Positions 13,531 to 19,145 of a stretch of DNA of 64,000 bases are shown piece after piece. Under the pieces are notes generated by a model. The model made no database searches, was not told where the DNA came from, and saw only the letters and a program-made list of their open reading frames with translations. This stretch comes from a virus. The stretch is from the IMG/VR virus record IMGVR_UViG_3300023174_000084, positions 51,581-115,580 of that record; one strand, 5' to 3'. Position numbers and translations under genes: made by a program. Each line of letters opens with the position of its first letter. Within the stretch, counting starts at the first letter, position 1.

Positions 13531-14304
13531 TTAGTTCATCATAAACTCTAAAACGCCACCATAACTATTTTCCATATCATCTTCGAGCTCTTTAATTTCT
13601 TGCATTGCTTCTTCAAAGATTTTATCACCGTTTAATACAACACCACCTGGTAATTGAATGTTACCAAATTTTTTAAGGTTTTCACCCCATTGTCGTTTAA
13701 TTAAAGCAGTTGCATATAGTTTTAGCCAGCGGTCATTCCATACTCGACTGTATACATTTGGATTAACAATAGTGTAACATTCAACTACAACAATTTGGCC
13801 TACAGTAATATCTGTATCATCCCAACCCCAATCAATGAATAATTTTTCCATATGTCGTTGGTAACGAATTGGAACTTCACCTGTAAATAACTGTTCAAGC
13901 ATTCTTAGATGCTGCATAGTCATAGTATAGTTGATGTATGATGCAGAAGTAAAATCGTAGAGTTCGTTTAATCGTAATTGATACCGCAAGTCAAACATAC
14001 TGACGGTTGCTTGTGAATCAGAAAGTGGAAATATACGAGTAACACCTTCAACTCGTGTAACGTTATTAGAATTATCGGTAACATTACTTAAATCTAGGTA
14101 ACGATTATCAATATCTTGTTGTGTTACTGCGTGAATATAATAAGTTTTCTGTAGTCCATCAAAATGATAGTCTTGAAAATATTGTAAGGCATCATCAACA
14201 CGATCTTGAACTTGGTCTGGATCGACATTGATTTCGATAACCGGAAAGCCAAGTTTTCTAAGGCAGTAGTCGGTAAATTGGTCTCTATTGGTAACGGTTG
14301 CCAT
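13531..14304 (-). CDS. gp13: Neck protein
   Basis: [16 protein letters not shown]...[27 protein letters not shown]. Confidence 0.95.
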
Positions 14305-15535
14305 TTTTTTCTTTCAATTTTTGTCTAATGGTATTTATTTGAACTTGACGTTCTTTAATCGCTTGTATTAATAAAGGCACCAAACGTTCATATCTAACCG
14401 TCAAATAATTTTCACCCGATTTACTATTACCATCTTTATCCATATCAAATGGAGCAATAGCAACCGCTTCGGGCATAATTGCTTGTATCTCTTGAGCTAT
14501 CACACCAACTTGTTTTTTATAATCATTATAACCAAATTGTTCAGCAAATTTATTTTGATTGAAAAATACTCCAGAAATTTGATTTAAAAGTGTTAAAGCA
14601 TCTCTTATTTCAACTATATCTTCTTTTAGTCTTTTATCTGAAAAATAAGCGGTAATATTATTTGTAGCTATAATTTCACCAGCAGTACCTGAAGCAGCAG
14701 TATTAACACCAAGTGAATTGATATTAGGATTATCACCTGTTGTTGTTCCTCCAGTTGGGCCAGTAGGTCCTGTTGGGCCTGTAGGACCTGCAGGTCCTGC
14801 TGATCCAGCCGGACTAGGACCTGTAACACCAGCTGATCCAGCTGGCCCTGTTGGTCCTGTTACGCCTGTTGTACCTGCTGGACTAGGACCTGTAAGACCA
14901 GCTGATCCATTTGGTCCTGTTGGTCCTGCTGATCCAGCCGGACTAGGACCTGTTGGTCCTGTAACACCAGCTGATCCATCTGGTCCTGTTGGTCCTGTTA
15001 CACCTGTTGTACCTGCTGGACTAGGACCTGTAAGACCAGTTTGTCCTGTGGTTCCATTTGATCCTGTTGGTCCTGTTACGCCTGTTGGACTAGGACCTGT
15101 TGGTCCTGCTGAGCCTGGACCGCCGGCCGAACCTTGTGATCCAGTTACACCTGTAGGACTAGGACCTGTTGGTCCTGTAACACCAGCTGATCCATTTGAT
15201 CCTGTTGGGCCTGCTGATCCAGCCGGACTAGGACCTGTTGGTCCTGTAACACCAGCTGATCCATCTGGTCCTGTTGGTCCTGTATTACCTTGAGGTCCAT
15301 TTGGTCCTGTTGGTCCTGTGTTGCCTTGGGATCCATTTGGTCCTGTTGGGCCTGCTGATCCAGCTGGACTAGAACCTGTAGAACCAGTTTGTCCTGTGTT
15401 GCCTTGGGATCCATTTGGTCCTGTAGGTCCTGGGTTGTTTGAAGCTTGTCCTGTCCAATTTCCAGCAGAATCTACAATATCTGTTGCACCAACAGATATG
15501 CCATTTTTAATTCTAAAATTTGAGTTAGTGGCCAT
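14285..15535 (-). CDS. Collagen-like fibre with interrupted Gly-X-Y repeat and C-terminal intramolecular chaperone (peptidase S74-like)
   Basis: Gly-X-Y run with GPSPAG interruptions; autocleavage motif [11 protein letters not shown]; VGVIAQE and [14 protein letters not shown]. Confidence 0.88.
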
Positions 15536-15538
15536 TTA

Positions 15539-16798
15539 TCACTCCACTTTTTTTAGGAGTTCATCAATCGCACTTTGCTGTTCTTTTATAGCTTGTATTA
15601 ACAATGGTATTAATTTTTCATATTGAACTGTCAAATAATTTTCACCAGATTTACTGTTGCCTTCTTTGTCCATATCAAAAGGAGCGATCTTAACTGATTC
15701 TGGTAAAACTTTTTGAACTTCTTGAGCTATCACACCAACTTGTTTTTTATAATCATTATAACCAAATTGTTCAGCAAATTTATTTTGTGTATAATAAACA
15801 CCTCTAATTTGATTCAATGATTCAATAGCATTTGAAATTATTTCAATATTTTCTTTTAATCGTTTATCTGAAAAATAAGCAGTAATATTATTTGTAGCTC
15901 TAATTTCACCAGCAGTACCTGAAGCAGCAGTATTAACACCAAGTGAATTTACTTGAGCATTTGAACCTGATGAAAAACCTCCTGTTGGTCCAGTCGGTCC
16001 GGTTGGGCCTGTTGGTCCTGTCGGACCTGTAGCACCTGTTGCACCTGTTGGACCAGTTGGACCTGTAGCACCTGTAGCACCTGTTGGGCCTGTCGGTCCT
16101 GTAGCGCCAGTTGGACCAGTTGGTCCAGCTGGACCTGTTGCGCCTGTAGCGCCAGTTGGTCCGGCTGGTCCTGTTGCTCCGGTTGGGCCTGTTGGTCCTG
16201 TCGGACCTGTAGCACCTGTTGCACCTGTTGGACCAGTTGGACCTGTAGCACCTGTAGCACCTGTTGGACCGGTTGGTCCCGTCGGACCTGTAGCACCTGT
16301 GGCACCTGTTGGACCAGTTGGACCTGTAGCACCGGTTGGACCTGTTGGGCCAGTTGGTCCGGTTGGTCCTGTTGGTCCGGTAGCACCTGTAGCACCTGTA
16401 GCACCTGTTGGACCGGTTGGTCCTGTCGGACCTGTAGCACCTGTAGCACCTGTTGGGCCTGTCGGTCCTGTAGCGCCAGTTGGACCAGTTGGGCCAGTTG
16501 GGCCAGTAGCACCTGTTGCACCTGTTGGACCAGTTGAACCTGTAGCACCGGTTGGACCTGTTGGACCAGTTGAGCCCGTAGCACCGGTTGGACCTGTTGG
16601 ACCCGTAGAACCGGTGGCACCTGTTGCACCTGTTGGACCAGTTGGACCTGTAGCACCTGTTGCACCTGTTGGGCCTGTCGGTCCTGTGGCGCCAATTAAT
16701 CCTGTTGCAGGACCTGTCCAAACACCTGATGAATTGATTACATCTGTGGTACCGACTGTGATACCATTTTTGACTTTAAAATTAGAGTTTGTAGCCAA
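15539..16798 (-). CDS. Collagen-like fibre (about 80 uninterrupted GPT/GAT triplets) with S74-like chaperone
   Basis: Pure Gly-X-Thr repeat; [10 protein letters not shown] cleavage motif; paralog of 14285-15535. Confidence 0.9.
15998..16267. repeat. Exact 90 bp direct repeat (15998-16087 and 16178-16267) inside the collagen-coding 9 bp repeat array
   Basis: Direct comparison of the sequence lines; period 180 bp. Confidence 0.85.
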
Positions 16799-16834
16799 GG
16801 TTCATTCTCCCCTTGTTTATTGTTATTATCTCTT

Positions 16835-17979: not shown

Positions 17980-18542
17980 TGTGTAAATACTCCGTAATAT
18001 GCTCTACCATAACAACCAGATTCAGATAGTGTTGTTATCATACCTCTAGCTCCAATCCATTCATTTAAATTCTTTTCTGTAAGTTCGTGTGGATGGCCAT
18101 CATGTGCTGGTATATCAATCCATTCAAACAATCTTAATGTTGGTGCCGCTGCTTTGGCATTGGCAATAATTTTACCTGGATCTATTGCATGTTGCATACA
18201 ATTATAAATCCAAACTTCATCCCAACCTCTTTCTACAACCTCTTCACCAGGTTTAATATCAACATCTATATTATGAAAAGCATATCTCATTAATGTCCAT
18301 TCAGGATATTCTATAGGATCAACAACTTTACCTTTTTTTAAGTTGATTGTTTTTAATAACATTGAAGTTGGACCACCACCAATATCTAAAATTGATTTAT
18401 TAAAAACATTAAATGAATAATGTTCTCTGTGTAATCCCATTAATTTACCATAGATGTAATGCTTTTGATCTTCATCAAATGTATTACAACAATTTCCCCA
18501 ATAATCTTTTTCAAATTCATAATCTTCCATAATTATACCCAT
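17976..18542 (-). CDS. Class I SAM-dependent methyltransferase-like protein
   Basis: Motif I ILDIGGGP; WDEVWIYNCMQH resembles motif IV. Confidence 0.75.
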   Translation of the reverse strand: MGIIMEDYEFEKDYWGNCCNTFDEDQKHYIYGKLMGLHREHYSFNVFNKSILDIGGGPTSMLLKTINLKKGKVVDPIEYPEWTLMRYAFHNIDVDIKPGEEVVERGWDEVWIYNCMQHAIDPGKIIANAKAAAPTLRLFEWIDIPAHDGHPHELTEKNLNEWIGARGMITTLSESGCYGRAYYGVFTQ

Positions 18543-19108
18543 TTAGGACCTTCAAACCAAACTGCAATAGAATATCTTGTACCTTTTGTTACTGGATGTG
18601 CTTGATGTGGAATAAAAGATGGAATGAAAATTGCTGTACCTTGTTGACGAATTTCTTCTTTATTTGGATATTGGCCACAAGTTAAATCAAAAATTTCAAA
18701 ATCACCACCTTCATATTCATCTGGATCGGATAATTGAATAAGACAAGTTAATTTTCTGTGATATGAATCATTATTAATCCAGAATACATCATGATGTTTT
18801 TTATATTCTCCTTGATAAGAAGAATCATATTCAGCTAGTTGAATAAAAGATAGATTGGTAATATGAAAATTGAACCATTCACGGTTCGCTTGAATACCCA
18901 TTTTCCAAATTTCTTCAAAAAGAAATTGAAAGTCTGGATCATTTGATTGAACAAAACGAACTTTACTTCTTCGCCAATTATTATCTAAAGTGTTACCATC
19001 AACACCTAATACAGCATCTTTAGAAGATTTTTTTAAACCTAAATCAAGAATTTTTTGGCAAGTTTCTTTTGAGAAATGCTTGCCAAAATAACACCATTCA
19101 CCTTTCAT
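18533..19108 (-). CDS. 2OG-Fe(II) oxygenase (prolyl-hydroxylase/PKHD-like)
   Basis: HxD (KHHD), RKLT..IQL, YEGGDF, distal His (PHQ) and RxS (RYS) 2OG-binding motif. Confidence 0.92.
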   Translation of the reverse strand: MKGEWCYFGKHFSKETCQKILDLGLKKSSKDAVLGVDGNTLDNNWRRSKVRFVQSNDPDFQFLFEEIWKMGIQANREWFNFHITNLSFIQLAEYDSSYQGEYKKHHDVFWINNDSYHRKLTCLIQLSDPDEYEGGDFEIFDLTCGQYPNKEEIRQQGTAIFIPSFIPHQAHPVTKGTRYSIAVWFEGPKWV

Positions 19109-19137
19109 AACAACCTCACTTATTTACATGATAAAAC

Positions 19138-19145
19138 TATTTATT
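19138..19145 (-). promoter_or_regulatory. Late promoter AATAAATA heading the oxygenase-MTase-GT cassette
   Basis: Motif about 30 nt upstream of ATG 19108, with a GAGG RBS between. Confidence 0.6.

Follow-up and report, generated by a model that had tools for sequence, protein, structure and literature searches.

A candidate cassette for tailoring collagen-like fibres in an uncultured T4-like phage

Organization of the locus

The window analyzed here, a stretch of 64,000 nt from an uncultured T4-like phage, contained a five-gene locus on the minus strand in which, as in the preliminary description, three enzyme genes were followed by two collagen-like fibre genes. The order was oxygenase, methyltransferase, GT4 glycosyltransferase, collagen 1 and collagen 2, and then the neck genes gp13 and gp14. 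The 2OG-Fe(II) oxygenase (18533..19108, 191 aa) matched PF13640 (2OG-FeII_Oxy_3) at 60 bits against a cut-off of 27. The next gene (17976..18542, 188 aa) encoded a protein with a class I SAM-methyltransferase fold, assigned from phrog_3603 and a structure model, and the third (16849..17979, 376 aa) a GT4 glycosyltransferase of the GT-B type (Glycos_transf_1, 54 bits against a cut-off of 26; phrog_3408, E 6e-192). Collagen and Peptidase_S74 domains were matched at 124 and 54 bits in fibre 1 (15539..16798, 419 aa), and at 75 and 51 bits in fibre 2 (14285..15535, 416 aa). Although the enzyme genes had been described as overlapping, this held without qualification only for the methyltransferase and GT genes (4 nt); the oxygenase and methyltransferase genes overlap by 10 nt or not at all, depending on the start codon. 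The methyltransferase likely starts at Met-5 (18530), because a 184-aa database homologue is 100% identical.

The gp13-like and gp14-like neck proteins (12616..14304, minus strand; phrog_211 Ad2, phrog_460 Hc2 and PF11649 T4 neck protein) served as landmarks, and the two collagen genes lie where wac (fibritin) sits in T4. The neck protein was closest (45-51%) to those of Stenotrophomonas DLP_6, Caulobacter Cr30 and Methylophilales Melnitz, T4-like phages of Proteobacteria; cyanophages were rejected as its nearest relatives.

A T4-type late-promoter core, ATAAATA, was located at 19138..19144 on the minus strand, 30 nt upstream of the oxygenase start and overlapping the stop codon of a 1690-aa fibre gene. 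The cassette had earlier been credited with its own late-promoter motif at 19138-19145; the motif (19145..19138, AATAAATA) was real, but its core was corrected to 19138-19144. Collagen 1 had a second core (16835..16841, minus strand) 37 nt ahead of it, and gp13 was preceded by a third copy (14332-14338). ATAAATA occurred 16 times in the window, fewer than the 31 copies expected by chance; all 16 were on the coding strand, and in 12 cases an ORF of 60 aa or more started 5-85 nt downstream of the motif. Because the motif is strand-exclusive and mostly placed just upstream of ORF starts, this pattern indicates that the copy at 19138-19144 is not a chance occurrence. The late-promoter motifs supported the grouping of the enzyme genes with the structural genes in expression, in agreement with the late expression proposed earlier.

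Collagen-like fibres as candidate substrates

Fibre 1 consisted of an N-terminal anchor of about 30 aa, 81 uninterrupted G-(P/A)-T triplets and a C-terminal S74 intramolecular chaperone carrying the cleavage motif S-D-K-R-L-K. Within its triplets, position X was Pro in 46 and Ala in 30, and position Y was Thr in 77. Fibre 2, also ending in an S74 domain, contained 71 triplets in nine runs separated by short breaks, with Pro at X in 33 and Thr at Y in 37. To these two fibres, the candidate targets named in the preliminary description, a 356-aa fibre (24252..25322, minus strand) was added; it gave a Collagen match in an own-genome search and held a run of 18 Gly-Pro-Thr-rich triplets, bringing the possible collagen substrates to three. 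The collagen repeats contained no Lys, and lysyl chemistry on them was therefore ruled out.

The three enzymes

The oxygenase carried the catalytic residues H105-x-D107...H168 and R178-x-S180, and the HxD...H triad and RxS motif were conserved in an alignment of 47 sequences. In an all-against-representatives search with VIA, the structure nearest to its model (pLDDT 97) was P. putida PPHD (Z 20.4), and high scores were also obtained for Trichoplax PHD (Z 19.3), the PBCV-1 collagen prolyl hydroxylase (Z 18.3), Dictyostelium PhyA (Z 17.1), Chlamydomonas P4H (Z 16.4) and PHD2 (Z 16.0). Lysyl hydroxylases and AlkB enzymes reached at most Z 14.2 (AlkB-type enzymes at most 13.4), and no Tet/JBP enzyme was among the 50 entries listed. 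Protein prolyl hydroxylases were the top structural matches in both Foldseek and VIA, while the best sequence match was PiuC/YbiX. By its modelled fold, the oxygenase belongs to the prolyl-hydroxylase (PHD/P4H) structural clade, as had been proposed. Two more 2OG oxygenases were found in the same genome, and paralogues lie beside uvsW in cyanophages.

The methyltransferase-fold protein belonged to phrog_3603, annotated as "unknown function" (E 5e-97), and had no Pfam or NCBIfam match. Its AlphaFold model (pLDDT 88) was matched in Foldseek, among the hits listed, almost entirely by class I SAM methyltransferases or proteins of that fold (probability 1.00), and its motif I reads ILDIGGGP, with D53-I-G-x-G-P and D75 invariant.

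The solved relatives nearest to the GT4 by sequence, glucosylsucrose synthase and a tetrahydrobiopterin glucosyltransferase, act on small molecules, and the match to such enzymes spans only residues 171-352. Homology to bacterial enzymes covers residues 1-375, acceptor domain included.

Gene associations across phages and bacteria

The GT4 was sampled in 39 dereplicated IMG/VR clusters. A collagen gene stood at +1 in 26% of them, at +/-1 in 38% and within +/-3 in about 62%, against a background five to eight genes away of 0-5% at most positions (4/18 at -6). The association of GT and collagen genes expected earlier was enriched in phages; about one third of the clusters had no collagen within 8 kb. 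These collagen-less loci had sugar-metabolism-like neighbours (epimerase, carbamoyltransferase and sulfotransferase, guesses based on N-termini alone), and collagen genes were found elsewhere in the genomes of this kind that were examined. All three GenBank phages with the GT4, S-CAM7, ACG-2014f and S-CBWM1, had a collagen-like gene within two genes of it, in a different order each time; the pair neighboured the baseplate hub in S-CAM7 and ACG-2014f, and in the present phage it was found at the neck. GT4 identity was 74-88%, versus 33-87% for the neighbouring neck genes.

The link extended to cellular genomes. Among 43 species genomes, mostly Clostridia and including Clostridium viride DSM 6836, the nearest GT4 homologues were full length with 41-47% identity, and a collagen-like gene stood directly upstream in 34 (on the same strand in 33), compared with 4/340 at the other positions within six genes. 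Some of these collagens gave weak BclA_C matches. We found no published characterization of this GT4 clade beside BclA-like genes in Clostridia.

A GT-methyltransferase link was likewise supported. An extra C-terminal domain (length over 500 aa) was present in 17/39 GT4s; of four long GT4s checked with Pfam, three had Methyltransf_23/11 and/or FkbM and one a second GT domain. The phrog_3603 methyltransferase was at most two genes from this GT4 in 28/49 loci, with one fusion to it, and occurred without a GT4 of the phrog_3408 kind in the other 21.

Oxygenase orthologues had a collagen/S74 fibre beside them, with a collagen gene within three genes, in 28/43 clusters (65%), and some of the "non-collagen" S74 fibres adjoining the oxygenase still held (GPT)5-8 runs. 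In contigs with another gene organization (L159, L162-164 and L142), the oxygenase was beside a lysozyme or putative terminase gene, near collagens with 73-80% Pro at X. No recognizable collagen was present in the fetched flank at L089, L121/123, L126 and L157. The position of the orthologues immediately before gp13 is fixed, so inherited synteny rather than function may account for part of their proximity to fibres. Fourteen orthologue clusters had a GT4 and 14 others a GT2-type set (GT2+DUF6445), most of these also with GT2+methyltransferase; no cluster had both. In the Synechococcus phages S-CAM9 and S-PRM1, the oxygenase orthologue was followed by a GT25 + PLOD-GT + 2OG fusion. These arrangements lend support to the same enzyme triad having been assembled from different parts across phages.

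In collagens near the oxygenase (n=61), Pro made up 47% of X positions at the median and never less than 13%, so that none was Pro-free, whereas GT-adjacent collagens without the oxygenase had a median of 11%, with 44% of them below 10% (n=25). Median Thr at Y was 63% for GT4-adjacent collagens versus 29% for oxygenase-adjacent ones without GT4. These contrasts gave p of about 1e-7 to 1e-9 with relatedness ignored; mapped on the GT tree, the oxygenase switches between presence and absence only about four times, leaving three independent pairs, which is not significant, with Pro content in the same direction in about two and opposite in none. The pattern suggests, from few independent contrasts, that the oxygenase goes with Pro-containing collagens and the GT4 with Thr-rich ones. 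S-CBWM1 has a Pro-rich collagen adjoining the GT and no PF13640 gene, so the oxygenase is dispensable for Pro-rich fibres. Either Thr or Hyp had been named as the glycosylation site; the data favour Thr, because the GT also accompanies Pro-free, oxygenase-free collagens.

Comparison with known systems

In Bacillus anthracis, the GPT repeats of the collagen BclA bear oligosaccharides on Thr, and these end in anthrose, a methylated sugar. Its O-methylated sugar fits the GT-plus-methyltransferase logic seen here, although other enzymes are employed and the context is the spore rather than a phage cassette; this BclA is not known to undergo prolyl hydroxylation. In C. difficile, SgtA is encoded beside bclA3 and puts O-GlcNAc on Thr of GPT repeats, and its glycan coats the fibre surface, as proposed here (PMC7157674). 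There too, a GT gene directly adjoins a Gly-Pro-Thr collagen gene. However, SgtA differs from the GT4 (GT-B): it is a TPR-repeat protein of the GT-A type without homology to it, it acts on a protein of the spore exosporium rather than on a virion fibre, and no hydroxylase or methyltransferase partner is described for it.

The prolyl hydroxylase vCPH of PBCV-1 (PDB 5c5t) is, like the present oxygenase, a viral protein of about 200 aa with a single domain. The two superimposed with an rmsd of 2.7 over 165 residues (Foldseek TM 0.69-0.73), but sequence identity was just 16-19%, and the virus that encodes vCPH infects eukaryotic algae. This enzyme acts on Pro-rich repeats, not on Gly-Pro-Thr, and is not known to be linked to a GT/methyltransferase cassette. 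Mimivirus L230, a lysyl hydroxylase/glucosyltransferase (LH domain PDB 6ax6), and animal LH3/ColGalT1 combine hydroxylation and glycosylation of collagen, and Mimivirus modifies its own collagen-like proteins, as proposed here; the S-CAM9 and S-PRM1 fusion is of related design. However, Mimivirus chemistry acts on Lys, and the present oxygenase is nearer prolyl than lysyl hydroxylases (Z 20 vs 14). A search without a positive control found no GT_PLOD match in the present genome fragment. In the Skp1 pathway of Dictyostelium and Toxoplasma, the cytoplasmic PHD-type PhyA, a close fold of our oxygenase, acts with Gnt1 and further GTs on one protein; the sugar there is on hydroxyproline, whereas here Thr is the more likely acceptor.

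Freeman and colleagues in 2023 reportedly found that mycobacteriophage GTs encoded near structural genes glycosylate virion proteins. In mycobacteriophages it is the C-termini of capsid and tail-tube proteins that are modified, rather than collagen fibres, and no hydroxylase is known to take part. From comparative genomics, Iyer et al. 2010 (PMC2938197) proposed that bacteria have operons combining 2OG dioxygenases and sulfotransferases with collagen-like or tail-collar proteins, in which, like here, prokaryotic collagen-like proteins would be hydroxylated by co-encoded dioxygenases and then modified further. Those operons differ in using beta-hydroxylase/phytanoyl-CoA hydroxylase families and sulfation rather than glycosylation, and the same authors read cyanophage dioxygenase arrays as secondary-metabolite genes (PMC2938197).

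Proposed function and alternative explanations

From the observed gene content, folds, catalytic residues, late-promoter motifs and comparative associations, we infer the substrates, modified residues, step order, sugar and attachment site as follows. The oxygenase, a putative single-domain prolyl hydroxylase, would hydroxylate X-position Pro of the Gly-Pro-Thr repeats in the two downstream fibres, and perhaps also in the upstream 356-aa fibre. The GT4 would transfer a sugar from a nucleotide sugar to the Thr hydroxyls of the repeats, and the small SAM methyltransferase would O-methylate the Thr-linked sugar. The S74 chaperone would aid trimerization of the fibre and then cleave itself off, leaving a glycan-coated collagen rod held by its conserved N-terminus, probably at the neck. 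Animal C-P4H acts on X-Pro-Gly rather than Gly-Pro-Thr, so the oxygenase would require a specificity as yet undescribed; the earlier remark that an enzyme hydroxylating X-position Pro would differ from the animal one stands. Helix stabilization, adhesion or shielding had been put forward earlier as possible purposes of such modification. Overall, we consider it reasonably probable that the cassette is expressed late and that its three enzymes each catalyse one step on the collagen-like whiskers of the phage itself.

Only the GT and methyltransferase might act on the collagens, with the oxygenase hydroxylating EF-Tu, a ribosomal protein or another phage structural protein, a division of labour that we regard as unlikely but worth serious attention. 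OGFOD1, Tpa1 and PPHD are hydroxylases of this host-protein type (ribosomal protein or EF-Tu), and PPHD, the EF-Tu hydroxylase, was the best structural match, with PiuC/YbiX best by sequence. The fixed place before gp13, at times with no recognizable collagen in the fetched flank, the many paralogous phage 2OG oxygenases away from fibres, two of them in this genome, and the S-CBWM1 case all fit such a substrate. However, collagen genes lay near most orthologue clusters, GPT runs occurred in several "non-collagen" S74 fibres, and the association held in differently organized contigs; no oxygenase-adjacent collagen fell below 13% Pro at X, and the PBCV-1 collagen P4H was nearly as close a fold. 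Rather less probable, in our view, is that the GT4 and methyltransferase make or trim a methylated glycan on a non-collagen target, such as the giant fibre, head, tail or host envelope (LPS or S-layer, e.g., for superinfection exclusion), the fibre region being an insertion hot spot. The collagen-less third of GT clusters, with neighbours whose N-termini resemble sugar-nucleotide or glycan enzymes, the small-molecule acceptors of solved relatives and a GT identity well above that of neck genes, as for a mobile cassette, point that way, and in the literature cyanophage GTs have been interpreted rather as modifiers of the host surface or of DNA (PMC12801897). Against this, the collagen-then-GT pair recurs in bacterial genomes without a virion or insertion hot spot, phage adjacency recurs in different contexts and gene orders, and the late-promoter motif places expression with structural genes.

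Hypermodification of DNA or nucleotides against restriction, by base hydroxylation followed by glycosylation and methylation, appeared very improbable. Tet/JBP-type 2OG oxygenases modify bases. Phage hypermodification pathways use GT-B glycosyltransferases, and 7FG9, also a PDB relative of the present GT4, is listed for a Rhizobium phage GT (PMC13326640). However, the oxygenase fold is nearest to protein prolyl hydroxylases, the known 5-hydroxycytosine pathway employs a thymidylate-synthase homologue and no 2OG enzyme, the cassette lies in the late structural block, bacterial GT4 homologues pair with collagen genes, and no nucleotide-metabolism gene was seen adjoining the cassette in its gene neighbourhood.

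Hydroxylation, glycosylation and methylation of the phage's own collagen, as put forward in the preliminary description, gained support from the comparative and structural evidence. We found no published demonstration of collagen-fibre tailoring in phages. The patterns across hundreds of phages and in spore-forming bacteria suggest that the cassette enzymes decorate the fibres, and such decoration would be a chemistry as yet undemonstrated in bacteriophages.

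Locus organization and late expression

The source record was an IMG/VR contig of 115.6 kb with an estimated completeness of 68%, on which the genes of this region all lay on the (-) strand, within the block of late structural genes of an uncultured T4-like myovirus. Several fibre genes stood at the head of the transcription order. A fibre of 356 aa (25322..24252), which includes a Gly-Pro-Thr-rich run of 18 triplets, and a 1690-aa fibre beginning with an Mtd_N domain (24216..19144) preceded a 191-aa 2OG-Fe(II) oxygenase (19108..18533), which directly followed the 1690-aa fibre. 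After it came a 188-aa protein of the phrog_3603 family (18542..17976), a 376-aa GT4 glycosyltransferase (GT; 17979..16849), two collagen-like proteins of 419 and 416 aa (16798..15539 and 15535..14285), and gp13-like and gp14-like neck proteins. The order in T4 is 12, wac, 13, 14, and the two collagen genes presumably occupied the place of fibritin. The gene set named in the preliminary description, namely a 2OG oxygenase, a methyltransferase-fold protein, a GT4 and two collagen-like fibres, was borne out in full by profiles and predicted models. The 1690-aa and 356-aa fibres had in common a related C-terminal domain of ~100 aa (Y-R-S-A-x-Y ... R-L-L-F-T), and the longer one contained many N-Q-F-A-Q-S-A-F-N-T-A-N-G-A-N-G-L-A-A-G-A-type repeats.

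No match to GenBank phages was obtained when the whole region was run through megablast, and relatives were found at the protein level only. The GenBank relatives of the GT were Synechococcus phages, and a cyanophage identity was considered on that basis; the closest relatives of the neck protein were T4-like phages of Proteobacteria (45-51% identity), so the host is not necessarily a cyanobacterium.

The T4-type late-promoter core ATAAATA occurred 16 times in the window (from 2152 to 53431) against ~31 expected by chance, each time on the coding strand, and 12 of the 16 copies had an ORF of at least 60 aa starting 5-85 nt downstream of them. The distance from core to gene start was 30 nt for the oxygenase, 37 nt for collagen 1 and 28 nt for gp13. 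Counts of sigma-70-like promoters and intrinsic terminators were at or below chance in a scan of 13400-19400. The ATAAATA motifs, rather than RNA, indicated that late production of the enzymes, alongside the structural proteins, is most likely, in agreement with the late expression first proposed for them. The ATAAATA sites also provided a usable map of the late transcription units of this phage.

Collagen-like fibres

Collagen 1 consisted of 81 unbroken Gly-X-Y triplets, with Pro (46) or Ala (30) at X and Thr at 77 of the Y positions, and collagen 2 of 71 triplets in nine runs, with 33 Pro at X and 37 Thr at Y; Lys was absent from the repeat regions of both. The two proteins matched the PF01391 profile (124 and 75 bits), and their C-termini matched PF13884 (Peptidase S74, an intramolecular chaperone) at 54 and 51 bits (cut-off 22). 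Both S74 domains contained the motif S-D-K-R-L-K, which we take, from endosialidase chaperones, to hold the catalytic Ser-Lys pair. Self-cleavage by S74 would leave a mature fibre of little beyond an N-terminal anchor and the collagen rod. The N-terminus, M-A-T-N-S-N-F-K/R-V/I-K-N-G-I, was found again in the collagen fibres of many related loci, which suggests a common docking site.

Owing to the GGN-CCN-ACN repeat, G+C was 0.40-0.42 locally, compared with 0.33-0.36 in the vicinity. Long off-frame or (+) ORFs within the collagen genes (15933-16721 (-), 262 aa; 15949-16695 (-), 248 aa; 14718-15293 (+), 191 aa; 16299-16844 (+), 181 aa) were rejected as by-products of this repeat.

Association of the GT with collagen genes

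The strongest single result of the analysis came from bacteria. A prokaryote scan in which each species was represented by one genome yielded 52 loci with GT homologues, 43 of them with a full-length gene, nearly all in Clostridia or other Bacillota and aligning over residues 1-375 at 41-47% identity. A collagen-like gene lay immediately upstream of the GT in 34 of these 43 loci, 33 times on the same strand, as in Clostridium viride DSM 6836 (locus L266; collagen 4667-5875, GT 5962-7125); the remaining positions up to six genes away had a collagen gene in 4 of 340 cases. Some of the adjoining collagens had weak BclA_C matches, as in exosporium proteins.

In this phage, the GT matched PF00534 (54.4 bits; cut-off 26.4) and PF13692 (45.9; cut-off 27), and a collagen gene started 50 nt downstream of it. 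The family was carried in GenBank by Synechococcus phages S-CAM7, ACG-2014f and S-CBWM1, with a different arrangement in each: two collagens, GT, GT-like protein and 2OG oxygenase in S-CAM7; collagen, hypothetical, methyltransferase, GT and 2OG oxygenase in ACG-2014f; and, in S-CBWM1 (another genus; GT 30% identical), a GT immediately preceded by a collagen-like "tail fiber". IMG/VR held at least 261 relatives, of which 80 loci were fetched and grouped into 39 clusters at 90% identity. Counting collagen genes of at least 15 triplets, one was present at +1 in 26% of the clusters, at +/-1 in 38% and within +/-3 in ~62%, while five to eight genes away the rate was 0-5% at most positions (-6: 4/18). 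The preliminary description had proposed synteny with collagen genes as a check, and the association was seen in both the phage and the bacterial sets. Clusters with no collagen nearby had other glycan-related-looking genes as neighbours, and in the larger contigs examined, collagen genes were present elsewhere on the contig.

It is difficult to account for the retention of the pair in phages and bacteria unless this GT clade is functionally tied to collagen repeats. We consider it probable that the GT acts on the collagen repeats. The collagen-partner GT4 clade, comprising phrog_3408 and its Clostridial homologues, was defined by this analysis and not by prior literature; its Clostridial and Bacillota members downstream of BclA-like genes, apparently uncharacterised, are candidate glycosylation enzymes for those collagens. 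The experimental analogue is SgtA of C. difficile, encoded beside bclA3, which attaches O-GlcNAc to the Thr residues of GPT repeats (PMC7157674), a GT gene next to a GPT collagen as in our phage. The two enzymes are not homologous, as SgtA combines a GT-A catalytic domain with C-terminal TPR repeats (PMC7157674), whereas the phage GT was GT-B/GT4 by Pfam, lacked TPR and fell outside the SgtA type.

Among the phage loci, the GT was 74-88% identical while the adjoining neck proteins were only 33-87% identical (IMG/VR loci L006-L085). Together with the Synechococcus-phage relatives of the GT and the Proteobacteria-type neck, this made the cassette look horizontally mobile between T4-like lineages.

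A predicted prolyl hydroxylase and its neighbourhoods

The oxygenase matched PF13640 (2OG-FeII_Oxy_3) at 60 bits against a cut-off of 27, and both the HxD...H iron triad and the basic 2OG-binding residue were present, with H105, D107, H168 and R178-x-S180 invariant or nearly so among 47 homologues. By sequence, the closest solved protein was PiuC/YbiX (E 4e-4). An AlphaFold model (pLDDT 97) was compared with 48,161 representative chains by the structure search VIA, which is independent of Foldseek. The six highest ranks were taken by prolyl hydroxylases: P. putida PPHD (Z 20.4), Trichoplax PHD (19.3), the PBCV-1 viral collagen prolyl hydroxylase (18.3), Dictyostelium PhyA (17.1), Chlamydomonas P4H (16.4) and PHD2 (16.0). 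Lysyl hydroxylases (Z of 14.2 or less), AlkB enzymes (13.4 or less) and small-molecule oxygenases scored lower, and the Foldseek list agreed, being almost all PHD2, PhyA, PPHD and vCPH. Both rankings place the modelled enzyme in the protein prolyl-hydroxylase (PHD/P4H) structural clade, as a single-domain member, in line with the prolyl hydroxylation first proposed.

The collagen prolyl 4-hydroxylases of animals (C-P4H) are alpha2beta2 enzymes with X-Pro-Gly as target. The phage protein was a lone catalytic domain of 191 aa with no peptide-substrate-binding domain or PDI beta subunit, and Pro in the repeats preceded Thr, not Gly, so the contrast with animal P4H drawn in the preliminary description held. 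The oxygenase is therefore predicted to be P4H-like but outside the animal C-P4H. Two more PF13640 genes occurred in the same genome, outside the window and away from collagen genes (22549-22803 and 37685-37912 of contig C1, genome G000); not every phage 2OG oxygenase is part of a fibre cassette.

Orthologues of the oxygenase at 80 IMG/VR loci (52-89% identity) formed 43 clusters, 28 of which had a collagen gene no more than three genes away, most often in the form of S74 fibres immediately upstream; (GPT)5-8 runs were also present in several "non-collagen" S74 fibres adjoining the oxygenase. It also occurred near very Pro-rich collagens (73-80% Pro at X) on differently organised contigs, beside a lysozyme or putative terminase. 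GT4 was present in 14 clusters and a GT2-type set (GT2+DUF6445) in 14 others, with both in none. Most GT2-type clusters also encoded a second 2OG oxygenase and a GT2+methyltransferase protein, as at L153:8551-12255 and in ~14 other clusters (2OG oxygenase, 244 aa; GT2+DUF6445, 568 aa; GT2+methyltransferase, 424 aa), and the set lay behind Gly-Pro-Gln-type collagen S74 fibres, in which Gln, not Thr, dominated Y. In phages S-CAM9 and S-PRM1, the orthologue was followed by a 613-aa fusion (L004:6555-8396 in S-CAM9; likewise in S-PRM1, L005) of Glyco_transf_25, a PLOD GT and a C-terminal 2OG-type region, the last recognised by eye and not as a Pfam match. The fusion adjoined two small 2OG oxygenases, lay downstream of a tail-fibre gene and had the collagen lysine-modification design of animals and mimivirus. 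PF25342 (PLOD-type GT) was not found in the present genome fragment, nor did the control genomes yield it. Set side by side, the GT4, the GT2-type sets and the GT25/PLOD fusion suggest that one functional triad has been rebuilt from non-homologous parts.

The methyltransferase

The phrog_3603 protein had no match in Pfam or NCBIfam and belonged to no named family, and its fold was predicted because the best match in a PDB sequence search reached only E 0.34. The predicted model (pLDDT 88) corresponded to a class I SAM-dependent methyltransferase fold (Rossmann-like): the Foldseek matches listed were almost all SAM methyltransferases or of that fold (probability 1.00, TM 0.45-0.64), among them the sugar O-methyltransferase RebM. 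D53-I-G-G-G-P (motif I, GxGxG) and D75 were invariant among 29 homologues, and D75 was inferred to have its usual ribose-binding role.

In 28 of 49 loci the GT had a phrog_3603 methyltransferase gene at most two genes away, and in one locus the two were fused; 17 of the 39 GT clusters encoded longer proteins. Pfam on four long GTs (L006, L036, L039 and L081; 561-765 aa) detected a C-terminal Methyltransf_23/11 and/or FkbM-type (Methyltransf_21) methyltransferase in three and a second GT4 domain in one. Fusion of the GT to three different methyltransferase families argued that the transferred sugar is methylated; that the predicted methyltransferase of this cassette is the enzyme responsible has, in our estimate, an even chance of being correct.

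Residue composition and the proposed sites of modification

Repeat composition tracked the neighbouring enzymes. Pro at X had a median of 47% and never fell below 13% in oxygenase-adjacent collagens (n = 61, dereplicated), against a median of 11% in GT-adjacent collagens with no oxygenase, 44% of which were below 10% (n = 25). Thr at Y had a median of 63% in GT4-adjacent collagens against 29% in oxygenase-adjacent ones with no GT4; naive p-values for these comparisons ignore relatedness and are not independent evidence. On the GT tree, oxygenase presence and Pro content gave three or four independent contrasts, none opposing, a number that was not significant. S-CBWM1 had a Pro-rich collagen beside its GT though it contained no PF13640 gene, as confirmed by a repeat search with positive controls. 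A protein search for the oxygenase in five GT-bearing genomes, run with no positive control, found none; in the repeat search with PF13640, genome G005 had only a distant copy, far from its collagen gene.

These patterns would fit Pro hydroxylation and Thr glycosylation as two separate steps. Of the sugar acceptors first suggested, Thr or hydroxyproline, Thr gained from its tracking with GT4, and the residue tracking argued against hydroxyproline as an obligatory acceptor. Hydroxylation of the repeat prolines by the predicted prolyl hydroxylase is slightly favoured over its not occurring.

Interpretation and significance

Teaching usually treats the hydroxylation and glycosylation of collagen as the chemistry of animals, giant viruses and the spores of Bacillus and Clostridioides being the exceptions. 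Virus-encoded collagen modification is established in Mimivirus, where it is Lys-based, PBCV-1 provides a known viral prolyl hydroxylase, spores of Bacillus and Clostridioides carry Thr-glycosylated GPT collagens with methylated sugars, and phage-encoded virion glycosylation is known in mycobacteriophages. The cassette is a variation on known kinds of system, not a new kind.

Other functions have been assigned to enzymes of these classes. In 2010, Iyer et al. predicted hydroxylation and sulfation of collagen-like proteins in bacteria by enzymes encoded alongside them, the dioxygenases being of other families, and interpreted cyanophage dioxygenase arrays as secondary metabolism (PMC2938197). 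Phage GTs were read as host-wall or DNA modifiers in a 2025 cyanophage paper (PMC12801897). DNA hypermodification was weighed as the main reading, as a 2026 paper lists for a phage GT the PDB entry 7FG9, also a relative of the present GT, and was rejected, that pathway being one of a thymidylate-synthase homologue with no collagen link. Modification of the phage's own collagen whiskers, as the preliminary description had it, was the best-supported reading on the comparative associations and the oxygenase fold, and a fibre-tailoring cassette of this description is reasonably likely. Our literature search, incomplete in coverage, found no paper in which a phage set of prolyl hydroxylase, GT and methyltransferase is described as modifying collagen fibres.

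More tentatively, and with the balance leaning slightly against it, several tailed-phage lineages could share a modular collagen-fibre tailoring kit, in which a PHD-type hydroxylase goes with Pro repeats, a GT4 or GT2-type enzyme with Thr repeats and a methyltransferase caps the sugar, the GT4 clade also serving Clostridial BclA-like collagens. If true, this would bring phage whiskers and spore hairs under one glycosylation system, and would provide the first hydroxyproline-bearing, glycosylated collagen in a bacteriophage. The hypothesis is directly testable, as the cassette carriers S-CAM7, ACG-2014f and S-CBWM1 are in culture, and the small single-domain enzymes (191, 184 from the likely Met-5 start of the methyltransferase, and 376 aa) could be leveraged for hydroxylated or glycosylated recombinant collagens. 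If confirmed, some unexplained 2OG oxygenases and glycosyltransferases of aquatic phages, now assigned to host-surface, DNA-modification or secondary-metabolite roles (PMC12801897, PMC2938197), would gain a concrete role. Phages abundant in metagenome assemblies would then hydroxylate and glycosylate their own fibres, with adsorption, virion antigenicity and the sensing of the environment by whiskers all depending on glycans that the fibre sequence does not reveal.
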